A DNA stretch of 64,000 nt from Escherichia phage 4E10. The notes under the pieces are model-generated. The model was not told the DNA's origin. It made no database searches and worked only from the letters and a program-made list of their open reading frames with translations. Where the stretch lies: sequence record OQ689735.1. One strand, given 5' to 3'. How positions within the stretch are numbered: position 1 is the first letter of the stretch; each line of letters starts with the position of its first letter. Positions 5,294 through 55,064 of the stretch are shown piece after piece. The translations under genes were made by a program, and so were the position numbers.

Positions 5294-5974
5294 TTATTTT
5301 AATGTTACGAAAGAAGAATTGCGTGTTTCACGAATTAGAACTGATCCGTCACGATTAATGTAGTAAATTAAGCTAAATAAAGTTTGGTGTGCCGACGCGT
5401 GTTCAAAACTAGTTGGGTGAGATTTCCAATCCGGAGTTTCAGCAATCCACTGGTAAATCCACCAAGGAACAGTGCAAAATCCTGGATTTTTTCCAATCAG
5501 CTGAAGATTCGGGCTAAAGTTTTCCGGAAGAGTAAATACAGACGGCTTTTCAGATTCAATAATCTCAGCTACAGCCTGTTCGAATTTTTCTTCAACGAAA
5601 GGAGTATCTTCAATCAAAATATTGGTATTTTCAGGAATTTTATCCGTTTCTACGACTTCAATTTTAATGTCAGATTTAACCGGAGAATCAATCAGAAGTG
5701 CTGCTTCTGGATTGACTTCTTCATCGTCATTTTTTAACCCCTCTGCAGCATCAGCAGCATCGATTAAGTCTTTAATAGATAACCCATCAGTCTCTGGCAT
5801 AGGTTCACTAGCGAGCTTCTGGAGGGCTTCTTCAATATCAACAACGATATTATCAAAAGATTTATTCTTTTTGACTTTTATACCAAACTGTTCAGCATAT
5901 TCAGCTAATTTAGCTTTAGCTTCTTTATTATCATCAAGAGCCTTCAGCTCTGCAATATAATCTTTATCTATCAT
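5294..5974 (-). CDS. inh: prohead protease inhibitor-like protein Inh
   Basis: 226 aa ORF at the T4 inh position between hoc and uvsW. Confidence 0.75.
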   Translation of the reverse strand: MIDKDYIAELKALDDNKEAKAKLAEYAEQFGIKVKKNKSFDNIVVDIEEALQKLASEPMPETDGLSIKDLIDAADAAEGLKNDDEEVNPEAALLIDSPVKSDIKIEVVETDKIPENTNILIEDTPFVEEKFEQAVAEIIESEKPSVFTLPENFSPNLQLIGKNPGFCTVPWWIYQWIAETPDWKSHPTSFEHASAHQTLFSLIYYINRDGSVLIRETRNSSFVTLK

Positions 5975-14002: not shown

Positions 14003-15097
14003 ATGGCAATTGTTAAAGAAATAACTGCTGATTTAATTAAAAAGTCCGGCGAGAAAATTTCAGCCGGACAGAGTACTAAATCAGAAGTAGCAACTAAAAC
14101 ATACACCGCCCAGTTTCCAACTGGGCGTGCTAGTGGTAATGACACTACAGGGGACTTCCAGGTAACAGATCTATATAAGAATGGATTATTATTTACTGCA
14201 TACAATATGTCATCTAGGGATTCTGGAAGTCTTAGATCGATGAGATCTAACTACTCTTCTTCATCTTCGAGTATTTTAAGTACAGCTAGAAACACTATTA
14301 GTAGTACAGTATCAAAACTATCAAATGGATTAATATCAAACAATAATTCAGGAACAATAAGTAAAGCTCCTGTCGCAAACATTCTTTTACCGAGATCTAA
14401 ATCTGACGTTGATACATCATCACATAGATTTAATGATGTTCAAGAAAGTCTTATCAGCAGAGGCGGAGGTACTGCTACTGGTGTGTTAAGTAATATTGCT
14501 TCAACTGCAGTATTTGGGGCACTGGAAAGTATAACACAAGGTATAATGGCTGATAATAATGAACAGATTTATACGACAGCCAGAAGTATGTATGGTGGTG
14601 CTGAGAATAGAACTAAAGTGTTTACATGGGATTTGACTCCACGTTCAACAGAAGATTTGATGGCTATTATCAATATCTATCAATATTTTAACTATTTTTC
14701 TTATGGTGAAACGGGCAAATCTCAATATGCTGCTGAAATAAAGGGGTATTTAGATGATTGGTATCGTTCTACGTTAATTGAACCTTTATCTCCGGAAGAC
14801 GCAGCTAAAAATAAAACACTATTTGAGAAAATGACATCGAGTTTAACTAACGTTCTAGTAGTTTCAAACCCGACAATTTGGATGGTGAAAAACTTTGGTG
14901 CAACGTCTAAGTTTGATGGAAAAACGGAAATATTTGGCCCATGCCAAATACAGAGCATCAGATTTGATAAAACACCTAATGGTAACTTTAACGGATTAGC
15001 TATTGCTCCAAACCTCCCTAGTACATTTACTCTTGAGATTACTATGAGAGAAATTATCACGTTAAACCGTGCTTCTTTATATGCGGGGACTTTTTAA
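14003..15097 (+). CDS. 48: baseplate tail-tube junction protein gp48
   Basis: 364 aa, T4 gp48 length. Confidence 0.85.
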   Translation: MAIVKEITADLIKKSGEKISAGQSTKSEVATKTYTAQFPTGRASGNDTTGDFQVTDLYKNGLLFTAYNMSSRDSGSLRSMRSNYSSSSSSILSTARNTISSTVSKLSNGLISNNNSGTISKAPVANILLPRSKSDVDTSSHRFNDVQESLISRGGGTATGVLSNIASTAVFGALESITQGIMADNNEQIYTTARSMYGGAENRTKVFTWDLTPRSTEDLMAIINIYQYFNYFSYGETGKSQYAAEIKGYLDDWYRSTLIEPLSPEDAAKNKTLFEKMTSSLTNVLVVSNPTIWMVKNFGATSKFDGKTEIFGPCQIQSIRFDKTPNGNFNGLAIAPNLPSTFTLEITMREIITLNRASLYAGTF

Positions 15098-16062
15098 TGT
15101 ATTCTTTAGAGGAATTTAATAATCAAGCAATAAACGCAGATTTTCAACGTAATAATATGTTTAGCTGCGTTTTTGCGACAACTCCATCAACTAAAAGCTC
15201 TTCGTTGATAAGTTCAATTAGCAACTTTTCTTATAATAACTTGGGTCTAAATTCAGACTGGTTAGGATTGTCTCAAGGCGATATTAATCAGGGAATTACC
15301 ACGCTAATTACTGCTGGCACACAAAAACTGATAAGAAAATCAGGTGTTAGTAAATATCTTATTGGTGCCATGAGTCAACGCACAGTTCAAAGTTTATTGG
15401 GCTCATTTACAGTTGGTACATATTTAATTGACTTCTTTAATATGGCATATAACTCATCTGGGTTGATGATATATTCTGTAAAAATGCCAGAGAATAGATT
15501 ATCCTATGAAACTGACTGGAACTATAACTCTCCTAATATTCGTATAACTGGGAGAGAATTAGACCCTTTGGTTATTTCATTTAGAATGGATTCAGAAGCT
15601 TGTAACTATCGTGCAATGCAAGACTGGGTTAACGCTGTTCAAGACCCAGTAACTGGACTGCGTGCTTTGCCACAAGATGTCGAGGCAGATATTCAGGTTA
15701 ATCTTCATGCTCGTAATGGATTACCTCATACTGCAGTGATGTTCACCGGATGCATTCCAGTGTCAGTGAGCGCTCCTGAGTTATCATATGATGGAGATAA
15801 CCAAATAACTACATTTGATGTTACTTTTGCGTATAGAGTCATGCAGGCTGGGTCGGTTGATAGACAAGCTGCGCTTGAGTGGCTTGAATCTGCTGCTATA
15901 AATGGCATTCAAAGCGTTCTCGGAAATAGCGGAGGTGTTACTGGATTATCTAATTCGCTTTCACGACTTAGTAGATTAGGGGGAACTGCTGGAAGCATTT
16001 CAAACATTAATACTATGACAGGAATTGTCAACTCGCAAAGTAAAATATTAGGAGCAATATAA
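15097..16062 (+). CDS. 54: baseplate tail-tube initiator gp54
   Basis: 321 aa; ATGA-type overlap with gene 48. Confidence 0.85.
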   Translation: MYSLEEFNNQAINADFQRNNMFSCVFATTPSTKSSSLISSISNFSYNNLGLNSDWLGLSQGDINQGITTLITAGTQKLIRKSGVSKYLIGAMSQRTVQSLLGSFTVGTYLIDFFNMAYNSSGLMIYSVKMPENRLSYETDWNYNSPNIRITGRELDPLVISFRMDSEACNYRAMQDWVNAVQDPVTGLRALPQDVEADIQVNLHARNGLPHTAVMFTGCIPVSVSAPELSYDGDNQITTFDVTFAYRVMQAGSVDRQAALEWLESAAINGIQSVLGNSGGVTGLSNSLSRLSRLGGTAGSISNINTMTGIVNSQSKILGAI

Positions 16063-16064
16063 CA

Positions 16065-16086
16065 ATGGGGACCGAAAGGTCCCCAT
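16065..16086. terminator. strong stem-loop atggggacc-gaaa-ggtccccat with T-run
   Basis: 9-bp stem with GNRA loop between convergent gene 54 and a minus-strand early gene. Confidence 0.65.
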
Positions 16087-16090
16087 ATTT

Positions 16091-16381
16091 TTATTTACGG
16101 AATGAAATAAAAGCAGCAACTGAAGCAACTAAACTGTCTTCAATATAAACTTCAATTTTTACCGGAGCTTCTGACTCAAATTTACCTGTTACTACACCTT
16201 GGAAAATGCTTTCAGTCTGTTCTGGCTTTGAAAAATTTTCAGAAGGAAAAATTCCAAACTTTTTATCTGTTCCAAAAATTTTGATAAATTCATCATAAAC
16301 TGCTTCATTAAAAGCGTTATCAGCAGGAATAACGCCTTCAACTACAAGTTCTTGACCTAAAAAGCGTAAAGAAGATTTCAT
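16091..16381 (-). CDS. hypothetical 96-aa early protein downstream of alt paralog
   Basis: ATG with GAGGAA RBS driven by a conserved early promoter cassette. Confidence 0.6.
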   Translation of the reverse strand: MKSSLRFLGQELVVEGVIPADNAFNEAVYDEFIKIFGTDKKFGIFPSENFSKPEQTESIFQGVVTGKFESEAPVKIEVYIEDSLVASVAAFISFRK

Positions 16382-16390
16382 TTTGTGTTC

Positions 16391-16442
16391 CTCATGTTAT
16401 GTCAGTAAGATTATTATAACACAACACGAGGGACTTGTAAAC
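16391..16442 (-). repeat. conserved promoter-leader cassette, copy 1 (near-identical to 32183-32238)
   Basis: ~53 nt nearly identical in both copies; carries early promoter, leader and RBS. Confidence 0.8.
16413..16441 (-). promoter_or_regulatory. T4-type early promoter (TTTACA -35, 17 nt, TATAAT -10)
   Basis: minus strand GTTTACAAG..N17..TATAAT upstream of the 96-aa ORF. Confidence 0.6.
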
Positions 16443-18499
16443 TACATCTTGAACTTTTTAGACATTCCGTTGATGTTAACCAAAGAAGCCAAGATTTGAG
16501 AAACTTCGTTTTCCTCTTCTTTTGATTCTTCTACAAGGAATTGATTAAACCCAGCCATTGGACGAACTTCGCCAGTTTCCATTAGATGATCGCCATCATA
16601 TACCGATTCTTCTAATTGTTCAGAAGGAGGAACGATTGTGCCTTCGATTAGATACTTGTTATAAGCAGTTTCTTTCATCATGTACGTGCTTACTTTATTA
16701 ATCTTCAACAAAATTCCACGCGGTAGAATAACTTCAGCTTCTGATGGAAATCCCGATAAATGACCTGGAACGATAACTTTGATTCGCTCAGCCCCTTTAA
16801 TTACCATACCTACGCTAGTTTCAGCATCTTCATTCGCATAAGCAGAATGACTACCCATATGCATCAAATCTTCTGCATCAACAGAACCTTCTCCTTCGCC
16901 AGAAAATACTGCACCGGAATCATCTAGAGCCATATAGTTTTTACCATGCTCACCGAAGATATTTGGTTTAAGCGATGTGGATACGAAGTTCTTGAAATAG
17001 AACATTTTGTTTTCAATGTTATGACGCAAAGTTTTAAAGGTAACTTCTTGTCCACGATAAAGCGTAGTTCCTGGAGGAAGAACTGATCCTTTGGCGAATG
17101 CAGAATCCAGAGTCTCGATGTGCTTAATAGCTCTTTCCATGTATTCTTCACGGGTAGAATCTGGTTTACCCAAAAGGAACGAGTTCATTTCAACATATGA
17201 ATCTGCACAATAATCTTCAATTACATCAGATTCAGCCTGAGTCAGTCCTTTTGGAGTTACTTCGGTGCTTGCGTATTCATATGCCTGAGCAGCAGATTCA
17301 TTAATCAATTTATAAATGCCATTCATGACAAATTGAATAATAGCTACCTTTTCGTCTGGTGTGGCTTTAGAACCTTTAACTAAATCATTGATAATTTTCT
17401 TAATAACATCAAAGCTATTAGAAATATTAATGTCAGCTAGATCGCTCAAAATTTTATCGGTTTTATAATCAAAAAATTCTTTATTCTTTAAATATTCTTG
17501 AGAACCTTGATGTGTTATATCGCTCTGCAGTCTGATAGACGGATCACGTAAACGTGCATGGGCCAATGCAATATGATTTCGGAAGCTTTCTAGTTCATAA
17601 TCGTTAGATTTAAAACGAGAAGCACTTCTCATACCACCGATAGCTCCTTTGCCGAAGTTTGAACCAATCTGAATAACGCCAGAGTTCATTGGTCCTTCTG
17701 CTTTATATACCGGAACTTTAGATTCAAACTCTTGATATTTCTTAGCGGCGAAGCTATCACCCTGTAGCGAAGCATCGACAGTAGAATATTGAGCTTGTGC
17801 TGCTAATCGACGACTAATTTTAGTTTTCTGAATAACAGCTTGATCCGTGCGCTTATCATTTTCTAAAGCAATAGAAGCAGCAACAGCAACAGCTTTAGGA
17901 ACAGCATTACCTGTTTTAACGTCTACATAAACATCACCAACCTTTGATTCAACTTTTGTGAATAACTCAGTTGAAATAGGAGGTACACCTGGAATGTCTT
18001 CTAAATTGGCATTTTTACGGTAAACCATAATATATGCATACTTTTTATCATAGTCCCAGATTTCCTTTAAAAGAACATATCGACCTGCTCCTTTAGTACG
18101 TACTAAACGGTCAGCAATAACTTGCATTTGACGAGCTGCGCCATTTGTTTTACTTTTTAGTACGCGGAATAAGCATGCGTCGATTTTATACTGCTTCATT
18201 GTTTGAAGAGCAGTATCAAAAACCGCATTAATGACGCCAATTGGATTTCCACCCAAGTTTCTAAGTTTAACCAGCGATAATTTCTCGTTGACACCTATCA
18301 TTACGATATGCATCATTTTATCGCCTGGCTTAACGTTTTTATTTGTATCACCACCAGAGGTGTATGTACAAAATCTAAATCCAGGAAGCACACTTTCTTC
18401 GCCGGCTTGAATAGCAAAAATTTGTGGTATTTTATGCTTAGGATTTAAGTTAACAACCGGCGCCGAAGCGCCGTCAAATAATTCTGTAATAAGTTCCAT
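16442..18499 (-). CDS. Alt-like ADP-ribosyltransferase, second paralog
   Basis: 685 aa; N-terminus MELITELFD and C-terminal R-S-E motifs (LYRGQ, FVSTSL, EAEVILPRG) parallel the upstream Alt. Confidence 0.8.
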   Translation of the reverse strand: MELITELFDGASAPVVNLNPKHKIPQIFAIQAGEESVLPGFRFCTYTSGGDTNKNVKPGDKMMHIVMIGVNEKLSLVKLRNLGGNPIGVINAVFDTALQTMKQYKIDACLFRVLKSKTNGAARQMQVIADRLVRTKGAGRYVLLKEIWDYDKKYAYIMVYRKNANLEDIPGVPPISTELFTKVESKVGDVYVDVKTGNAVPKAVAVAASIALENDKRTDQAVIQKTKISRRLAAQAQYSTVDASLQGDSFAAKKYQEFESKVPVYKAEGPMNSGVIQIGSNFGKGAIGGMRSASRFKSNDYELESFRNHIALAHARLRDPSIRLQSDITHQGSQEYLKNKEFFDYKTDKILSDLADINISNSFDVIKKIINDLVKGSKATPDEKVAIIQFVMNGIYKLINESAAQAYEYASTEVTPKGLTQAESDVIEDYCADSYVEMNSFLLGKPDSTREEYMERAIKHIETLDSAFAKGSVLPPGTTLYRGQEVTFKTLRHNIENKMFYFKNFVSTSLKPNIFGEHGKNYMALDDSGAVFSGEGEGSVDAEDLMHMGSHSAYANEDAETSVGMVIKGAERIKVIVPGHLSGFPSEAEVILPRGILLKINKVSTYMMKETAYNKYLIEGTIVPPSEQLEESVYDGDHLMETGEVRPMAGFNQFLVEESKEEENEVSQILASLVNINGMSKKFKM

Positions 18500-18502
18500 G
18501 AT

Positions 18503-20590
18503 TTATCCTTGAACGAACTTGTAAGGCATGTTTGTAATATCTATGCAAGACGCAATAATTCCAAGAGATGATTCGACTTTCTGTTTAACATTTGATGAAA
18601 CAAATGACGCAAAATCAACTCTGTCTTCTATATCACCTGTCATTGTAACCAATTCACCAGTTTCCATTAAATGGTCTCCGTCATAGATTACCGATTCGGT
18701 GAGTTCTTCTGTGGTCATAACTTCAGCTTGAATGAGTTTTGTATTATTAGATGTTGTTCCGTCATTATTAGAAGCATCAGTTATTTTATTAACTTTGACC
18801 ATCAATCCACGCGGTAGAATAACTTCAGCTTCTGTTGCTATTCCGAGACTTCCTGGATATACAACATTAACTTTATGAGCTCCATCAATTGCCCATCCTA
18901 TTTGAACTTTAACGTATTCAGGATTTTCTTTATACGCTCTTATTTCGTTTGGATTAATAGTTATTCCTTCTTCATTTTTATCAACTGTTAATTCATTACG
19001 AGCTTCTGGTTCTAAAAGACCAATACCAGCATGTGTGATTCCAAAACGTCCAAAAATGATAGGAGTTAAAGAAGTAGATACAAAATTTCTGAAGTAGAAC
19101 ACTTTATTTTTAACTAACGCTTCATATATAGGAGCAGTCATACTTTGAGCACGATAAACTGTAATGCCTTCTGGTATACGGTCACCATTTTCAAAAGCTG
19201 AATCTAAGTTATTTATAGCAGATTCAATTTCTTTTTCACTCATTACATCATATCGTTCTGGATTGTAGCGGCCTAAAAGAAGATTATTGATGTCAGTATA
19301 TCCTGAACCGCAATATTCTCTAATGCCACGCTTTTGCGATGGAGTATATTTAGAACCATCACGGGCAATAGTAATATCAATCATTGGACCTGCACCAATT
19401 CCGGAAAAGCTATAAATCATTCGTTTGAGGAATTTAGTTTTTGCTGCGTTCCAAGAATTTTTAGTTATTTCTTCCCAGACTTCATCTGGCTGCCCTTTAC
19501 GAGTTTTATTATGTTTATCAAGCCAATTATCTTTATATTCTTCAAAGAATTGATTAACAGCTGCTGCGTATTTCTCTAAACATTTTATTGAAGTAGTTGG
19601 TTCATTTTTAATCGCATTAAGAATTACATCTTTAATTTTTTCAGAAACTTCATTAACCTCACTTTTTGAAAAGAATTTATAGTCATAGTGAAGTTCATCT
19701 GCGGTTCCTTCGGCAATGATTTTTGCTGCCTTAGTTTTAGAAGCTAATGAATTAATTCCAAGCTTCATTTCTTCTGCTTCGGGAATTAAAGGAGCGGTAG
19801 CAGGTTTATTGAAATTAGCTGCGGTAGATTCATACTTCTGGAATAATTCACTTTCAAATCTAGAAGATTCCAACGACTGACTTTGCGCAATTGCTCTACG
19901 TGAAATTTTAACTTTAACGATTACCGCTTGGTCAGAACGTTTATCATTTTCTTGCGCAATAGATGCTGCAATTGCCTCATTTTTAGTTACTTGGGCTCCA
20001 GTATCTTTATTGATATAAACATCACCGACCTTCGATTCAACTTTAGTAAAGAGCTCGGTACTAATTTCCGGAACTCCTGGAATGTCTTCTAGTGATACAT
20101 TTTTGCGATGTATAAGAATATATGCATACTTTTTATCATAATCCCAGAGTTCCTTGAGAAGGACGTATCTGCCACCTGAACGACTACGGATAAGTCTATC
20201 AGCAATAACTTGAATTTGTCGAGCTTGTCCAGCAGTTTTAGACTTAAGAATACGAAGCATACAAGCATCAATTTTATATTGACGCATTGTTTGCATTGCA
20301 ACAGTAAAAACTGAATTGATATAATTAATTGGGCTTGGACCAAGACCTTTTAATTTAGCAATTGAACCTTTAGCAGTTAATGTAAAAGGAACAATGTGCA
20401 TCATTTTGTCGCCCATTTTTAAATCGCGATTAGTATCACCTCCAGATGTATATGTACATAAACGAAAGCCTGGTTGTTCAATTGCATCATCAACATGAAC
20501 TGAAAAAATTTGTGGTATTTTCTTCTTTGGATTTAAGTTTGTAATCGGAAGAGTAGTATCTTCGTCAAATAATTCTGTAATAAGTTCCAT
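18503..20590 (-). CDS. alt: ADP-ribosyltransferase Alt
   Basis: N-terminus MELITELFDEDTTLPITNLNPKK as in T4 Alt; R-S-E motifs VYRAQ, FVSTSL, EAEVILPRG. Confidence 0.85.
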   Translation of the reverse strand: MELITELFDEDTTLPITNLNPKKKIPQIFSVHVDDAIEQPGFRLCTYTSGGDTNRDLKMGDKMMHIVPFTLTAKGSIAKLKGLGPSPINYINSVFTVAMQTMRQYKIDACMLRILKSKTAGQARQIQVIADRLIRSRSGGRYVLLKELWDYDKKYAYILIHRKNVSLEDIPGVPEISTELFTKVESKVGDVYINKDTGAQVTKNEAIAASIAQENDKRSDQAVIVKVKISRRAIAQSQSLESSRFESELFQKYESTAANFNKPATAPLIPEAEEMKLGINSLASKTKAAKIIAEGTADELHYDYKFFSKSEVNEVSEKIKDVILNAIKNEPTTSIKCLEKYAAAVNQFFEEYKDNWLDKHNKTRKGQPDEVWEEITKNSWNAAKTKFLKRMIYSFSGIGAGPMIDITIARDGSKYTPSQKRGIREYCGSGYTDINNLLLGRYNPERYDVMSEKEIESAINNLDSAFENGDRIPEGITVYRAQSMTAPIYEALVKNKVFYFRNFVSTSLTPIIFGRFGITHAGIGLLEPEARNELTVDKNEEGITINPNEIRAYKENPEYVKVQIGWAIDGAHKVNVVYPGSLGIATEAEVILPRGLMVKVNKITDASNNDGTTSNNTKLIQAEVMTTEELTESVIYDGDHLMETGELVTMTGDIEDRVDFASFVSSNVKQKVESSLGIIASCIDITNMPYKFVQG

Positions 20591-20613
20591 CATAGCCTCT
20601 CTAGTGTTTATTC

Positions 20614-20621
20614 TATTTATA
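20614..20621 (-). promoter_or_regulatory. late promoter TATAAATA for alt
   Basis: plus-strand TATTTATA about 21 nt upstream of alt ATG; AGAGAGG RBS. Confidence 0.6.
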
Positions 20622-20626
20622 AAATT

Positions 20627-20644
20627 AAAGGCCCGAAGGCCTTT
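20627..20644 (-). terminator. stem-loop aaaggcc-cgaa-ggccttt
   Basis: 7-bp GC stem with tetraloop just after the stop of the 62-aa ORF. Confidence 0.5.
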
Positions 20645-20831
20645 AGTAATCTAGTGGTAAGAGAGTACGATATATTTCAAACTTTGGTCCTTTTTCATAG
20701 GCATCAAATGTTTCTGTAAATTTATTGTAAGCATATGCATCTACAAATTCGAGAATGACTTGTGATACAGAAGTAGAAACATCTCCACCTTCTTTTTGAG
20801 CAATGACAATTGTTTCTAAGTAAGCTTTCAT
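20643..20831 (-). CDS. hypothetical 62-aa protein
   Basis: ORF overlapping the ligase stop by 4 nt. Confidence 0.5.
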   Translation of the reverse strand: MKAYLETIVIAQKEGGDVSTSVSQVILEFVDAYAYNKFTETFDAYEKGPKFEIYRTLLPLDY

Positions 20832-22291
20832 AAACCAGTTACCTCATGAAAATCGCCAAATACATCCTCGAATGTATTAGCTTTAGTTTTATCTTCACGT
20901 AAACGAATCGCAATCGGAAGAAATAATTTAACGTAATCAGTGCGGCCATCAGATTTTAACCAACCGTTGCATTCGCACTCTAGAATTTTTCCAATATAAT
21001 AATTTTGGTTTTCCATAATGCGAGTACGGTCAAGTTCATGCGATTTTACACCAGCTTTATCTTTTAAGCCTGAACCAGCATTTACTTTAATTTTTCCACA
21101 CTCTGACTCAAGAATAAATCCACCCGCTTTAGTAGGGTCTTTACGGTGAGGATAAATTCCTACAATTTTTAAATCAACATCAATTATTTCTTTAAATTTA
21201 TAAAGATTTTTTGAACGAGCATTTTCCCATAATCCATCGATATTTTTGAGAATAATACCTTCAAGACCTTGGTCAATATACTTTTTATAAATTACCTTAG
21301 CTTCATCTAGGTTATTTACTACCTGGTTTTCAATTAAAATTACTTTATCATAACCTGATGTCATTTGTTCTAGTTTAGAAAAACGTACATCATATTTCAA
21401 ACGAAATGCAGGAAGACCGTATATTTCTACCAACGGGACATAATCCCAGACCTGAAACTTCATGCATTGAGCTTCTTTTTCAGAAATGGTTCCCTTTAAA
21501 GATTTATTAGCGATTCCATTAGAAGTAGTACGTGATTCAGCTACTTCGGCGAATTCTTTAGCTTTACTAATTTCAGGATAAGCATCAAAAAGAAAATCTA
21601 GGCCTTCTGGTTCCTTTTCAACTTGCTCATGGTATACCAATTCGCCATCAATTAACACACCTTCTGGATGAATCTGGCGAGCTTCTGCAGTCATTTTGAT
21701 TAACTCTTCCTTGAGAAGATCTAATCCTAGATATTCATTACCAGCTCGTGATAAAAGACGAACATCATCTAATTCATCACCTCTGACTTCAGCAAAGCAC
21801 CGAGCTCCATCAGCTTTTAATTGGGCAAAGGCTGGAAATTTGATATTCTTATTAATGCCTTTTTCATCATAAGAACTTGCCAGCATTTGAGGTTGTTCAG
21901 GAATTAAACCTGGCCAAACTTTGTTTGCAATAGATACTGATGCACCACATTCAAGGTCTCGCATCATCACCCGACGCAAAACTTCAACATCATCTTTTTT
22001 ACCGTCAGCAATATATCCAGTTAATTCCTCAATTGCCGCATTTCCGGTCAATTTCCGAGTAGCTAACGTGAATTCAATGAAGTCAAGCATATCGGTAAGA
22101 GTCAACATTCCAAAACTCTGGGTAGCAATACCAGGTTTAGGCCATTTCTTGATATAATACTGTAACCCACGAGAATAAGTCAGACGATATACTCGTTTAA
22201 GTAATTCATTATCTTTATTCTTTTCAAGAATTGCTTGCTTCTGCTTAGTTGAACCAATAGATGCTATTTCGTTCAGAATTTTAAGAATCAT
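20828..22291 (-). CDS. 30: ATP-dependent DNA ligase gp30
   Basis: 487 aa; N-terminus MILKILNEIASIGSTKQKQAILEKNK as in T4 DNA ligase. Confidence 0.93.
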   Translation of the reverse strand: MILKILNEIASIGSTKQKQAILEKNKDNELLKRVYRLTYSRGLQYYIKKWPKPGIATQSFGMLTLTDMLDFIEFTLATRKLTGNAAIEELTGYIADGKKDDVEVLRRVMMRDLECGASVSIANKVWPGLIPEQPQMLASSYDEKGINKNIKFPAFAQLKADGARCFAEVRGDELDDVRLLSRAGNEYLGLDLLKEELIKMTAEARQIHPEGVLIDGELVYHEQVEKEPEGLDFLFDAYPEISKAKEFAEVAESRTTSNGIANKSLKGTISEKEAQCMKFQVWDYVPLVEIYGLPAFRLKYDVRFSKLEQMTSGYDKVILIENQVVNNLDEAKVIYKKYIDQGLEGIILKNIDGLWENARSKNLYKFKEIIDVDLKIVGIYPHRKDPTKAGGFILESECGKIKVNAGSGLKDKAGVKSHELDRTRIMENQNYYIGKILECECNGWLKSDGRTDYVKLFLPIAIRLREDKTKANTFEDVFGDFHEVTGL

Positions 22292-54260: not shown

Positions 54261-54276
54261 AGGGGCTTCGGCCCCT
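54261..54276 (+). other. intercistronic GC hairpin aggggc-ttcg-gcccct between genes 37 and 38
   Basis: 6-bp stem with UUCG loop immediately before the gene 38 RBS; no T-run. Confidence 0.5.
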
Positions 54277-54287
54277 TGGAGGTTTAT

Positions 54288-55064
54288 ATGGCAGTAACAG
54301 GACCGTGGGTAGGATCGTCTGCAGTAGTTAATACAGGACAAAATTGGATGGGTGGTGCCGCGCAGAGATTGAGAATGGGAATTCCGTTTTGGATGAGTAA
54401 TATGATAGGTAGATCTGTTGAAATAATTCACACGCTTGGAGCAGACCATAACTTCAATGGTCAATGGTTCCGAGATAGATGTTTTGAGGCAGGTAGTGCA
54501 CCTATAGTGTTTAATATCACTGGAGATTTAGTATCATATTCTAAAGATGTTCCTTTATTCTTCATGTATGGAGATACACCGAATGAATATGTTCAGTTGA
54601 ATATACACGGCGTAACGATGTATGGACGTGGCGGTAATGGCGGTAGCAATAGTCCTGGTTCAGCTGGAGGTCATTGTATTCAAAACGATATTGGTGGGAG
54701 ACTAAGAATTAATAATGGTGGAGCTATTGCTGGAGGTGGCGGCGGTGGCGGCGGCGGATATTATTCTCCTTTTTCACAAATGAGATTGACTTTTGGAGGT
54801 GGCGGCGGGCGTCCGTTTGGCGCACCGGGCGGATCTATTGATATGCAATCAGGAGCAACTGCTGGTACTATTTCTGCGCCTGGCGCAGGGTCTGTGAACG
54901 GTATCTATAGCGGCGGTGGCGGTGGCGAAGTTGGCTCCGCAGGAGGTAGATGTAATATTCGTGGTCAAGGATATGAATACGATGGCGGAGCTGCTGGTTA
55001 TGCCGTCATAGGGTCTACACCGACATGGCAAAACGTTGGAGCAATATATGGTCCAAGAGTATAA
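54288..55064 (+). CDS. 38: T2-type tail fibre adhesin gp38 with glycine-rich motifs
   Basis: 258 aa from ATG with GGAGG RBS; three poly-Gly tracts flanking variable segments. Confidence 0.85.
54726..54950 (+). repeat. glycine-rich motif tracts (GGY codon runs) inside gene 38
   Basis: [23 protein letters not shown] and [12 protein letters not shown] encoded by ggtggcggc runs. Confidence 0.75.

Follow-up and report, generated by a model that had tools for sequence, protein, structure and literature searches.

The alt locus of Escherichia phage 4E10, analysed within a window of 64,000 nucleotides (OQ689735.1), is best explained as the standard late transcription unit of the T-even phages in its undeleted form, with two full-length genes for Alt-type ADP-ribosyltransferases (ARTs), and we give this reading, together with the mechanism proposed below, a probability of about 0.85. 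The arrangement is already known and is the majority state in Tequatrovirus. A sequence-only reading of the same DNA had presented the two full-length genes as a departure from T4, and any novelty in this does not survive comparison with the reference phages, as T2 (PV648363), T6 (MH550421) and RB3, RB5, RB6, RB7, RB9 and RB10 carry and annotate both. The second gene is labelled alt.-2, "also similar to alt", in T6 (MH550421), and genes of its type are frequently annotated as "Alt-like RNA polymerase ADP-ribosyltransferase (x2)". T2, T6 and RB3 have the second gene at an identity of at least 95%, as do about 396 phage records, versus 91 records with the deletion junction of the T4 type.

Organization of the alt locus

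Both genes lie on the minus strand, adjacent to each other and 3 nt apart, as originally described. Paralog A (18503-20593) encodes 696 aa from its first ATG and 695 aa from the second (20590), the start reading ATGATGG as it does in T4, and paralog B (16442-18499) encodes 685 aa. The junction between them (18497..18510, minus strand) consists of a Shine-Dalgarno sequence, AAGGA, preceding B (18510-18506), the TAA stop codon of A (18505-18503), the spacer ATC (18502-18500) and the ATG start codon of B (18499-18497). Translational coupling could operate across a gap of 3 nt, and AAGGA would serve as a ribosome-binding site of B's own, with the start codon coming 3 nt past the stop of A. The synteny, with gene 30 and alt.1 on one side of the alt genes and gene 54 on the other, is identical to that of T4, T2, T6 and RB3.

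A T4-type late promoter -10 motif, TATAAATA, stands upstream of A, at 21 nt from its first ATG (20614-20621, minus strand), and is conserved upstream of T4 alt. It comes directly after a terminator-like hairpin, AAAGGCCTTCGGGCCTTT, with a T-run (20626..20645, minus strand), located directly 3' of the alt.1 stop codon; T4 has the identical sequence at this place, and the hairpin insulates the alt late unit from early and middle transcription upstream. As TATAAATA occurs 11 times across the window when 9.8 occurrences are expected by chance, the motif by itself proves nothing. The late promoter had been thought to be present only at the upstream copy; the motif before A stands, but there is a second one inside A (19210-19217, minus strand, codons A-I-N-N), 711 nt upstream of B. 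In T2 and T6 this internal motif is intact, in RB3 a synonymous change has destroyed it, and T4 does not have it; we rejected it as a late promoter of B's own on the grounds of this lack of conservation in RB3 and T4 and of the chance-level frequency of the motif. It is probably a coding coincidence, possibly a minor late promoter for B, and could supply a separate B promoter in some phages.

No intergenic promoter was found directly before B, so that we infer its late expression from co-transcription with A. Likewise, nothing resembling a terminator interrupts the minus strand from A through B to alt.-3, and the first such site downstream of the late promoter is a hairpin, terminator-like in both directions, that separates alt.-3 from gene 54 (16065..16086). 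Since A and B have no terminator between them, they are most simply read as co-transcribed from the late promoter upstream of A, and a single transcript would run from the promoter across A, B and alt.-3 to this hairpin (16086-16065).

The last gene of the unit, alt.-3 (16091..16381, minus strand; 96 aa, DUF5498 / phrog_1739), is 100% identical to T4 Alt.-3. It is served by a sigma-70-type early promoter-like site located directly after the B stop codon (16413..16441, minus strand) and made of TTTACA, a 17-nt spacer with TG, and TATAAT, which with 11 of 12 matches is the best-scoring site in 15900-21000. This ORF had been described as uncharacterised, which is right in that no wild-type function has been assigned to it and wrong in that it is a known gene of T4, studied in the CmdTAC work (PMC11618068).

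Family assignment, catalytic residues and fold

At the gene level, family matches and conserved motifs support A and B as intact Alt-type ARTs. Both score above the gathering threshold of 23.4 bits for Pfam PF03496 (ADPrib_exo_Tox), with 129 bits (1.8e-37) for A and 72.7 bits (3.2e-20) for B, and both match PHROG 802 (phrog_802, Alt-like ART) from end to end (2.8e-273 and 1.9e-255, respectively). Homologs carry PF03496 and PF26846, and NCBIfam has no family for A, B or alt.-3. The two proteins have the same domain layout, namely a conserved N-terminal alpha/beta part of about 237 aa, a highly variable helical part (about 238-410), the ART domain (about 411-625) and a C-terminal tail.

The R-S-E triad, said to be intact in both, is indeed present with the motifs initially quoted. 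These read TVYR480AQ, FVS505-T-S507L and E587-A-E589VILPRG in A (codons R480 19151-19153, S505-T-S507 19070-19078 and E587/E589 18824-18832, minus strand) and TLYR482GQ, FVS507-T-S509L and E587-A-E589VILPRG in B (R482 17054-17056, S507-T-S509 16973-16981 and E587/E589 16733-16741, minus strand), and the R/STS/ExE columns of A, B, T4 Alt, ModA and ModB align. The catalytic Arg on beta-1, within a (Y/F)R motif, is R480 in A and R482 in B and aligns with R478 of T4 Alt, with the Arg of ModA and ModB and with the "VYR" of CdtA, and E587-A-E589 in the ARTT loop of both proteins aligns with E574-M-E576 of T4 Alt, E163-Q-E165 of ModA and the ExE of CdtA. Such an E-x-E motif is typical of arginine-specific ART enzymes. 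Mutation of its second Glu in T4 Alt (E577A, E576 in RefSeq numbering) abolishes activity (PMC11404850), and mutation of the second Glu also kills ModA. The second copy does not lack the catalytic Arg, Ser and Glu: R482, S507, S509, E587 and E589, together with E6 and E631, are invariant in an alignment of 19 sequences with identities of 42-96%, a conservation that suggests that B is enzymatically active.

A phmmer search against PDB chains gave no match at E<=0.01 for B and only weak CdtA/iota matches for A. The structure prediction that had been proposed as a check was run on B and gave an AF2 model with a mean pLDDT of 74, in which the ART domain is ordered (pLDDT of about 75-92) and the tail is disordered after about residue 629. 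The top Foldseek matches of this model are the ARTs Vis, C3, Certhrax, CDTa and VIP2, with a probability of 1.00 and TM (target) of 0.6-0.68, and B is thus predicted to have a C3/VIP2-type ART fold.

Prohead-protease motifs and probable packaging

The start MELITELFD is common to A and B, and the prohead-protease pattern noticed with it is kept at both ends of the proteins. Candidate gp21 cleavage motifs are found at ITE-6 (E6 20573-20575) and LTE-632 (E632 18695-18697) in A and at ITE-6 (E6 18482-18484) and LEE-631 (E631 16607-16609) in B, all on the minus strand, in alignment columns homologous to the sites of T4 Alt, a protein cut at ITE-6 and LTE-619 according to mass spectrometry (PMC5694885). 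The C-terminal L-x-E site of B is accompanied by an invariant YDGDHLMETGE tail. Since L/I-x-E is short (7 occurrences in B and 10 in A), a conserved motif is no proof of cleavage.

Presence in virions, injection and modification of Arg265 of RNA polymerase alpha would be expected of a protein of the T4 Alt-like class. By homology with T4 Alt, A and B would become part of the prohead core, and gp21 would cut each of them at two places, behind ITE-6 and behind LTE-632 in A or LEE-631 in B. That B is packaged and injected is likewise expected from this homology, and once injected with the DNA, A and B would mono-ADP-ribosylate host proteins on arginine using NAD+. In the searchable literature, which does not include Koch & Rueger 1994 on the alt genes of T2, T4 and T6, neither virion proteomics nor biochemistry turned up for B, and mentions of the function or proteome of the second paralog are at annotation level only.

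Divergence of the paralogs and competing explanations

A and B are the products of an old duplication. The N-terminal part, initially called near-identical over about 220 aa, is only 67-68% identical over about 237 aa, with saturated dS. The overall identity is 41%, falling to 36% in the catalytic region and to 19% in the helical region that precedes it, in agreement with the divergence of the central regions that had been pointed out. Across this phage, T2, T6 and RB3, dN/dS is 0.03-0.05 for A and 0.03-0.06 for B, and both genes are under strong purifying selection. With an identity of only 19-36% between their catalytic and variable regions, A and B probably recognise partly different substrates, bearing in mind that divergence of the catalytic region is by itself no proof of different targets.

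In a rather unlikely alternative, B is an active and packaged ART redundant with A, directed at the same main targets (RNA polymerase alpha) and kept for dosage or robustness. The shared domain architecture, the identical EAEVILPRG and FVSTSL and the cleavage motifs would fit such redundancy, as would the fact that T4 lives well without B, the deletion being present in 91 records, and that T4 alt is itself non-essential (PMC9026906). On the other hand, the catalytic region is just 36% identical and the helical region before it 19%, and both copies are kept at a dN/dS of about 0.05 in hundreds of genomes although dS is saturated; strongly diverged paralogs that persist over long times more typically point to subfunctionalisation. 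The three ARTs of T4, moreover, have distinct target sets, as Depping et al. reportedly described in 2005. It is very improbable that B is a dead or decaying duplicate, a pseudoenzyme heading to the T4 state and perhaps only structural in the head core. Such a fate is suggested by the loss of B in T4 and in the 91 records, by its Pfam score, which is below that of A (72.7 vs 129 bits), and by the phmmer search, which found nothing for B among PDB sequences, but its ORF is intact in about 396 records, with a dN/dS of 0.03-0.06, R482, S507, S509, E587 and E589 are invariant in homologs down to 42% identity, and the model shows the ART fold with confidence and resembles C3, VIP2 and CDTa. We rejected B as an outright pseudogene on its dN/dS and its invariant catalytic residues.

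We also consider it improbable, if a little less so, that B is an active ART that is not packaged or injected and that, unlike A, acts late in the producing cell or is released at lysis. Phage ARTs can do without packaging, as ModA and ModB illustrate, and the searchable literature gave no experiment in which B was seen in virions; yet B shares its whole N-terminal domain of about 237 aa with packaged Alt (67-68% identity), has kept the propeptide MELITE at one end and, at its C-terminal end, the L-x-E site and the invariant tail, and sits in the late unit with A, whereas ModA and ModB (200 and 207 aa) have no N-terminal domain, propeptide or C-terminal site. Within the two-gene late unit that we favour, the old duplication would have led to A and B, and their diverged catalytic and variable regions probably to partly different substrates. 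A further step, which we propose tentatively and at slightly less than even odds, is that B acts as a second injected effector, whose range of host targets is unlike that of A and T4 Alt, and that the alt locus is a hot spot for the exchange of ART "warheads" on a conserved delivery chassis. Such a chassis would consist of the N-terminal domain and the two propeptides removed by the protease, and the target of B might be a defence or toxin-antitoxin component and not RNA polymerase. If true, this would explain the mosaic of A vs T4 Alt, the one to three tandem copies seen across genera and the loss of B in T4. The idea of two diverged paralogs with more or diverged targets is found in a 2026 paper (PMC13600099).

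Origin of alt.-1 and alt.-2 in T4

The statement that T4 has one Alt with only short alt.-x ORFs beside it agrees with the T4 annotation. Two of these ORFs, alt.-1 (61 aa) and alt.-2 (67 aa), are the frameshifted first 116 or so codons of B: the T4 remnant has 94% nucleotide identity to nt 1-351 of B and then joins its last 17 nt or so, and B matches the PHROGs of alt.-1 and alt.-2 at 2e-40 and 1e-37. The segment of B missing from T4 measures 1,699 bp (16462..18160, minus strand) and is bounded by the 9-nt direct repeats CTAAAAAGT (18160-18152 and 16461-16453). The T4 frame is split by a 1-nt deletion in an A-run, and the 1,699-bp deletion removes the remaining gene, including the whole ART domain. 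T4 lost B through a 1.7-kb deletion between the repeats and a 1-nt frameshift, leaving alt.-1 and alt.-2. The note "apparent insertion in alt.-2" in the T6 GenBank record was rejected in favour of such a deletion with frameshift. A T4 RefSeq note and Nolan et al. (2006; PMC1524935) had previously described alt.-1 and alt.-2 as what remains of a duplication of alt.

T4, the basis of the picture of three ARTs, is therefore the exception, a deletion derivative with most of the second alt copy lost, and the majority of related phages have one more Alt-type gene, the product of which is probably an injected ART. The count of two ARTs given here covers the window, modA and modB lying outside it by T4 synteny. 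As a discovery the locus carries little weight, the two-gene state being that of the Tequatrovirus majority, annotated in the T2, T6 and RB references and discussed in print. No report on the substrates of the B protein was found in the searchable literature, and finding its targets would be a tractable and modest extension of the work on phage ADP-ribosylation and RNAylation.

Comparison with known systems

The closest counterpart of B is the second Alt-like gene of T2, to which it is 98.4% identical, its length (685 aa), its distance of 3 nt from alt and its neighbours all being shared. Nothing substantive distinguishes B from the second gene of T2, T6 and the RB phages, the few differences being dominated by synonymous changes (dS of about 0.16, dN of about 0.009).

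T4 Alt (gpAlt) is an NAD+--arginine ADP-ribosyltransferase present in about 40 copies per head and injected, with RNA polymerase alpha as its documented target. A is the positional ortholog of this protein (NP_049811), located between alt.1/gene 30 and alt.-x/gene 54, and resembles it by residues 1-246 (100% identical) and 601-695 (94%), by the R/STS/ExE residues and by the ITE-6 and LTE cleavage motifs. It differs in residues 247-410, which are only 29% identical, and in the ART core (411-600, 63%), and because of this divergence A is a different allele of the effector part, of the T2/T6 type. B is 41% identical to T4 Alt overall and 67% over residues 1-237.

T4 ModA and ModB belong with A and B to the R-S-ExE ART clade, their catalytic columns aligning, but they are early proteins of 200 and 207 aa, without the N-terminal head domain or propeptides, and encoded at another locus. 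The C3 exoenzyme, VIP2, iota Ia, CDTa and Vis toxins share the fold and the catalytic motifs at 14-20% identity; they are not head proteins of a phage but toxins secreted by bacteria. Tandem Alt arrays are known from other Straboviridae, with three genes in Dhakavirus WG01, two full genes and a partial one in Aeromonas phage 44RR2.8t, and a further case in RB49. They show a similar paralog expansion at the same locus, which the genes for DNA ligase and gp54 flank, and differ in copy number and alleles; B, at 48-50% identity, is closer to the Dhakavirus/JS10-type copies than to A.

Organization and transcription of the alt locus

The 14-22.3 kb portion of the window is a T-even (Tequatrovirus) segment, in which genes 48 (14003-15097) and 54 (15097-16062) lie on the plus strand and are followed on the minus strand by alt.-3 (16091-16381, 96 aa, DUF5498, 100% identity to T4 Alt.-3), by two Alt-type genes, hereafter B (16442-18499, 685 aa) and A (18503-20590 or 20593, 695 or 696 aa), by alt.1 (20643-20831, 62 aa) and by the DNA ligase gene 30 (20828-22291). 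Alt.1 and the end of gene 30 overlap by 4 nt, and the alt.1 product matches the Pfam family PF24647 "Phage blade protein" (1.9e-29). At the position of genes 37/38, a 262-aa ORF (54276-55064) follows a 1109-aa ORF; its length is nearer to that of the T2/T6-type gp38 adhesin than to that of the 183-aa gp38 of T4, which would fit a T2/T6-like phage.

Upstream of A, the alt.1 stop codon is followed by a GC-rich hairpin with a T-run, by the T4-type late promoter motif TATAAATA at 20614-20621, by GAGAGG and by ATGATGG, a layout that is the same upstream of T4 alt, double ATG included. The start of A is ambiguous (ATGATGG at 20588-20593, also present in T4 at about 5503-5509 of the T4 locus extract L001), and the second ATG is favored since the GAGAGG Shine-Dalgarno lies 5 nt from it and 2 nt from the first. 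Three nucleotides separate the stop codon of A from the ATG of B, which is preceded at 6 nt by an AAGGA ribosome-binding site. Terminator-like hairpins occur on the minus strand after alt.1 (20645-20626) and after alt.-3 (16086-16065), with none on that strand between A, B and alt.-3, and the simplest reading would be a single late transcript from 20614-20621 spanning the three genes. A second TATAAATA within A (19210-19217) is common to T2 and T6; in RB3 a synonymous change breaks it, and T4 lacks it. It is probably incidental, the motif being no commoner than chance across the window (11 observed vs 9.8 expected). The best sigma-70-type promoter match of the region (TTTACA, a 17-nt spacer with TG, and TATAAT; 16441-16413, minus strand) begins directly after the B stop codon, so that the sequence-only reading was reasonable in calling alt.-3 early-expressed. 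In T4, C-terminal extensions of alt.-3 block CmdA degradation and so let the mutants escape the CmdTAC defence system (PMC11618068).

Two Alt-type ADP-ribosyltransferases

That both A and B encode Alt-type ADP-ribosyltransferases (ARTs) is supported at the gene level, and the proposal of two tandem intact genes is confirmed. Both products match PF03496 (ADPrib_exo_Tox) far over threshold (A 1.8e-37, B 3.2e-20) and PHROG 802 "Alt-like RNA polymerase ADP-ribosyltransferase" from end to end. The catalytic residues of A (R480, S505-T-S507, E587-x-E589) and B (R482, S507-T-S509, E587-x-E589) align with R478, S503-T-S505 and E574-x-E576 of T4 Alt and with their counterparts in T4 ModA and ModB; those of A align in addition with YR and ExE in CdtA, a toxin of C. 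difficile. The second Glu of ExE is the residue mutated in both Alt E577A and ModA E165A, which abolish activity (PMC11404850). Alt numbering is inconsistent in print ("ITE-6" or "7-residue propeptide"; E577A if the upstream Met codon of the pair is residue 1, or E576 in RefSeq numbering). R482, S507, S509, E587 and E589 of B are invariant in an alignment of 19 sequences, comprising B and homologs down to 42% identity. The same alignment served to build an AlphaFold2 model of B (mean pLDDT 74), in which the ART domain is well ordered; among PDB entries, the model is matched best by the ARTs Vis, C3, Certhrax, CDTa and VIP2 (probability 1.00).

Divergence, selection and the derived state of T4

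Overall, A and B share 41% identity, distributed as 67-68% in the N-terminal domain (residues 1-237), 19% in the helical region (238-410), 36% in the ART core (411-600) and 43% in the tail (after about 632). With dS saturated at about 1.65 in the N-terminal domain, the "near-identical" N-terminus of the sequence-only reading was overstated, and the duplication is old. Compared with their orthologs in T2, T6 and RB3 (dS about 0.11-0.17), A and B show dN/dS of 0.03-0.05 and 0.03-0.06, respectively. Both genes are maintained by selection, and these values rule out that B is a decaying copy.

By position, A is the ortholog of T4 alt (L001:3455-5503), yet it is mosaic against T4 Alt, with 100% identity over residues 1-246, 29% over 247-410, 63% over 411-600 and 94% over 601-695, as if recombination had swapped the central "effector" part and left the N-terminal domain and C-terminal propeptide in place. 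B shares 41% identity with T4 Alt, and its first 116 or so codons correspond to T4 alt.-1 (61 aa) and alt.-2 (67 aa) at 94% nucleotide identity. In T4, a 1-nt deletion in an A-run divides this remnant into the two ORFs, and a 1,699-bp deletion, bounded exactly by the 9-nt direct repeats CTAAAAAGT (minus strand, 18160-18152 and 16461-16453), joins it to the last 17 nt or so of B; T4 therefore represents the derived state. In GenBank, the note of an "apparent insertion in alt.-2" for T6 reverses the direction, the T4 state being a deletion between the repeats.

Predicted packaging and possible role of the second Alt-type enzyme

T4 virion mass spectrometry showed that Alt is trimmed by the prohead protease gp21, losing six residues at ITE-6 and 63 at LTE-619 (PMC5694885), and about 40 Alt copies are present per T4 head (PMC9026906). 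In the extracted T4 sequence, the two motifs occupy precisely residues 4-6 and 617-619; their counterparts are ITE-6 and LTE-632 in A, and ITE-6 and, in the homologous column, LEE-631 in B. E6 and E631 of B are invariant in the 19-sequence alignment, and its model is disordered after about 629, as expected of a removable propeptide. These features support, without proving, that B would undergo the same packaging and trimming as Alt. Just past the C-terminal gp21 site, and therefore within the removed propeptide, comes an invariant motif, S-V-(I)-Y-D-G-D-H-L-M-E-T-G-E (B, residues 632-640, 16580-16606; A, residues 633-641, 18668-18694). Its retention in homologs down to 42% identity, though the B model is disordered there, suggests a targeting or tethering role of the propeptide.

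Experimental data on virion presence, activity or targets of the B protein were not found in the searchable literature. It is plausible that B modifies other host proteins than A, given that identity falls to 19-36% across the variable and catalytic regions and that both genes have been retained in the long term. The alternative, that B is redundant with A, would fit with T4 managing without B.

Distribution and comparison with related phages

Megablast with the 4.9-kb region as query gave hits in 544 phage records; coverage reaches 80% or more in 341, and many bear the annotation "Alt-like RNA polymerase ADP-ribosyltransferase (x2)". About 396 records contain B at ≥95% amino-acid identity, and its 90% cluster has 772 member sequences; the T4-type deletion junction is found in only 91 records. 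The two-gene arrangement is not new, and reference T-even genomes in which both genes are already present and described, named as a refutation by the sequence-only reading, do exist: T2 (PV648363), T6 (MH550421) and RB3 harbor the two at full length and with the same spacing. The T4 RefSeq annotation states that alt.-1 and alt.-2 "reflect an old duplication of the first part of gene alt"; Nolan et al. (2006) likewise derived them from an alt duplication and reported a full-length one in phage 44RR (PMC1524935). A 2026 Tequatrovirus paper described two Alt paralogs at 43% identity, suggesting functional divergence and more targets (PMC13600099). A pair of Alt-type genes is thus the usual arrangement at the T-even alt locus and was annotated and published before. 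Among other Straboviridae, Dhakavirus WG01 harbors three tandem Alt-like genes at the same locus (L006, 512-6624) and Aeromonas phage 44RR2.8t two full and one partial (L007, 1558-6426), and B shares more identity with the Dhakavirus/JS10-type copies (48-50%) than with its neighbor A (41%).
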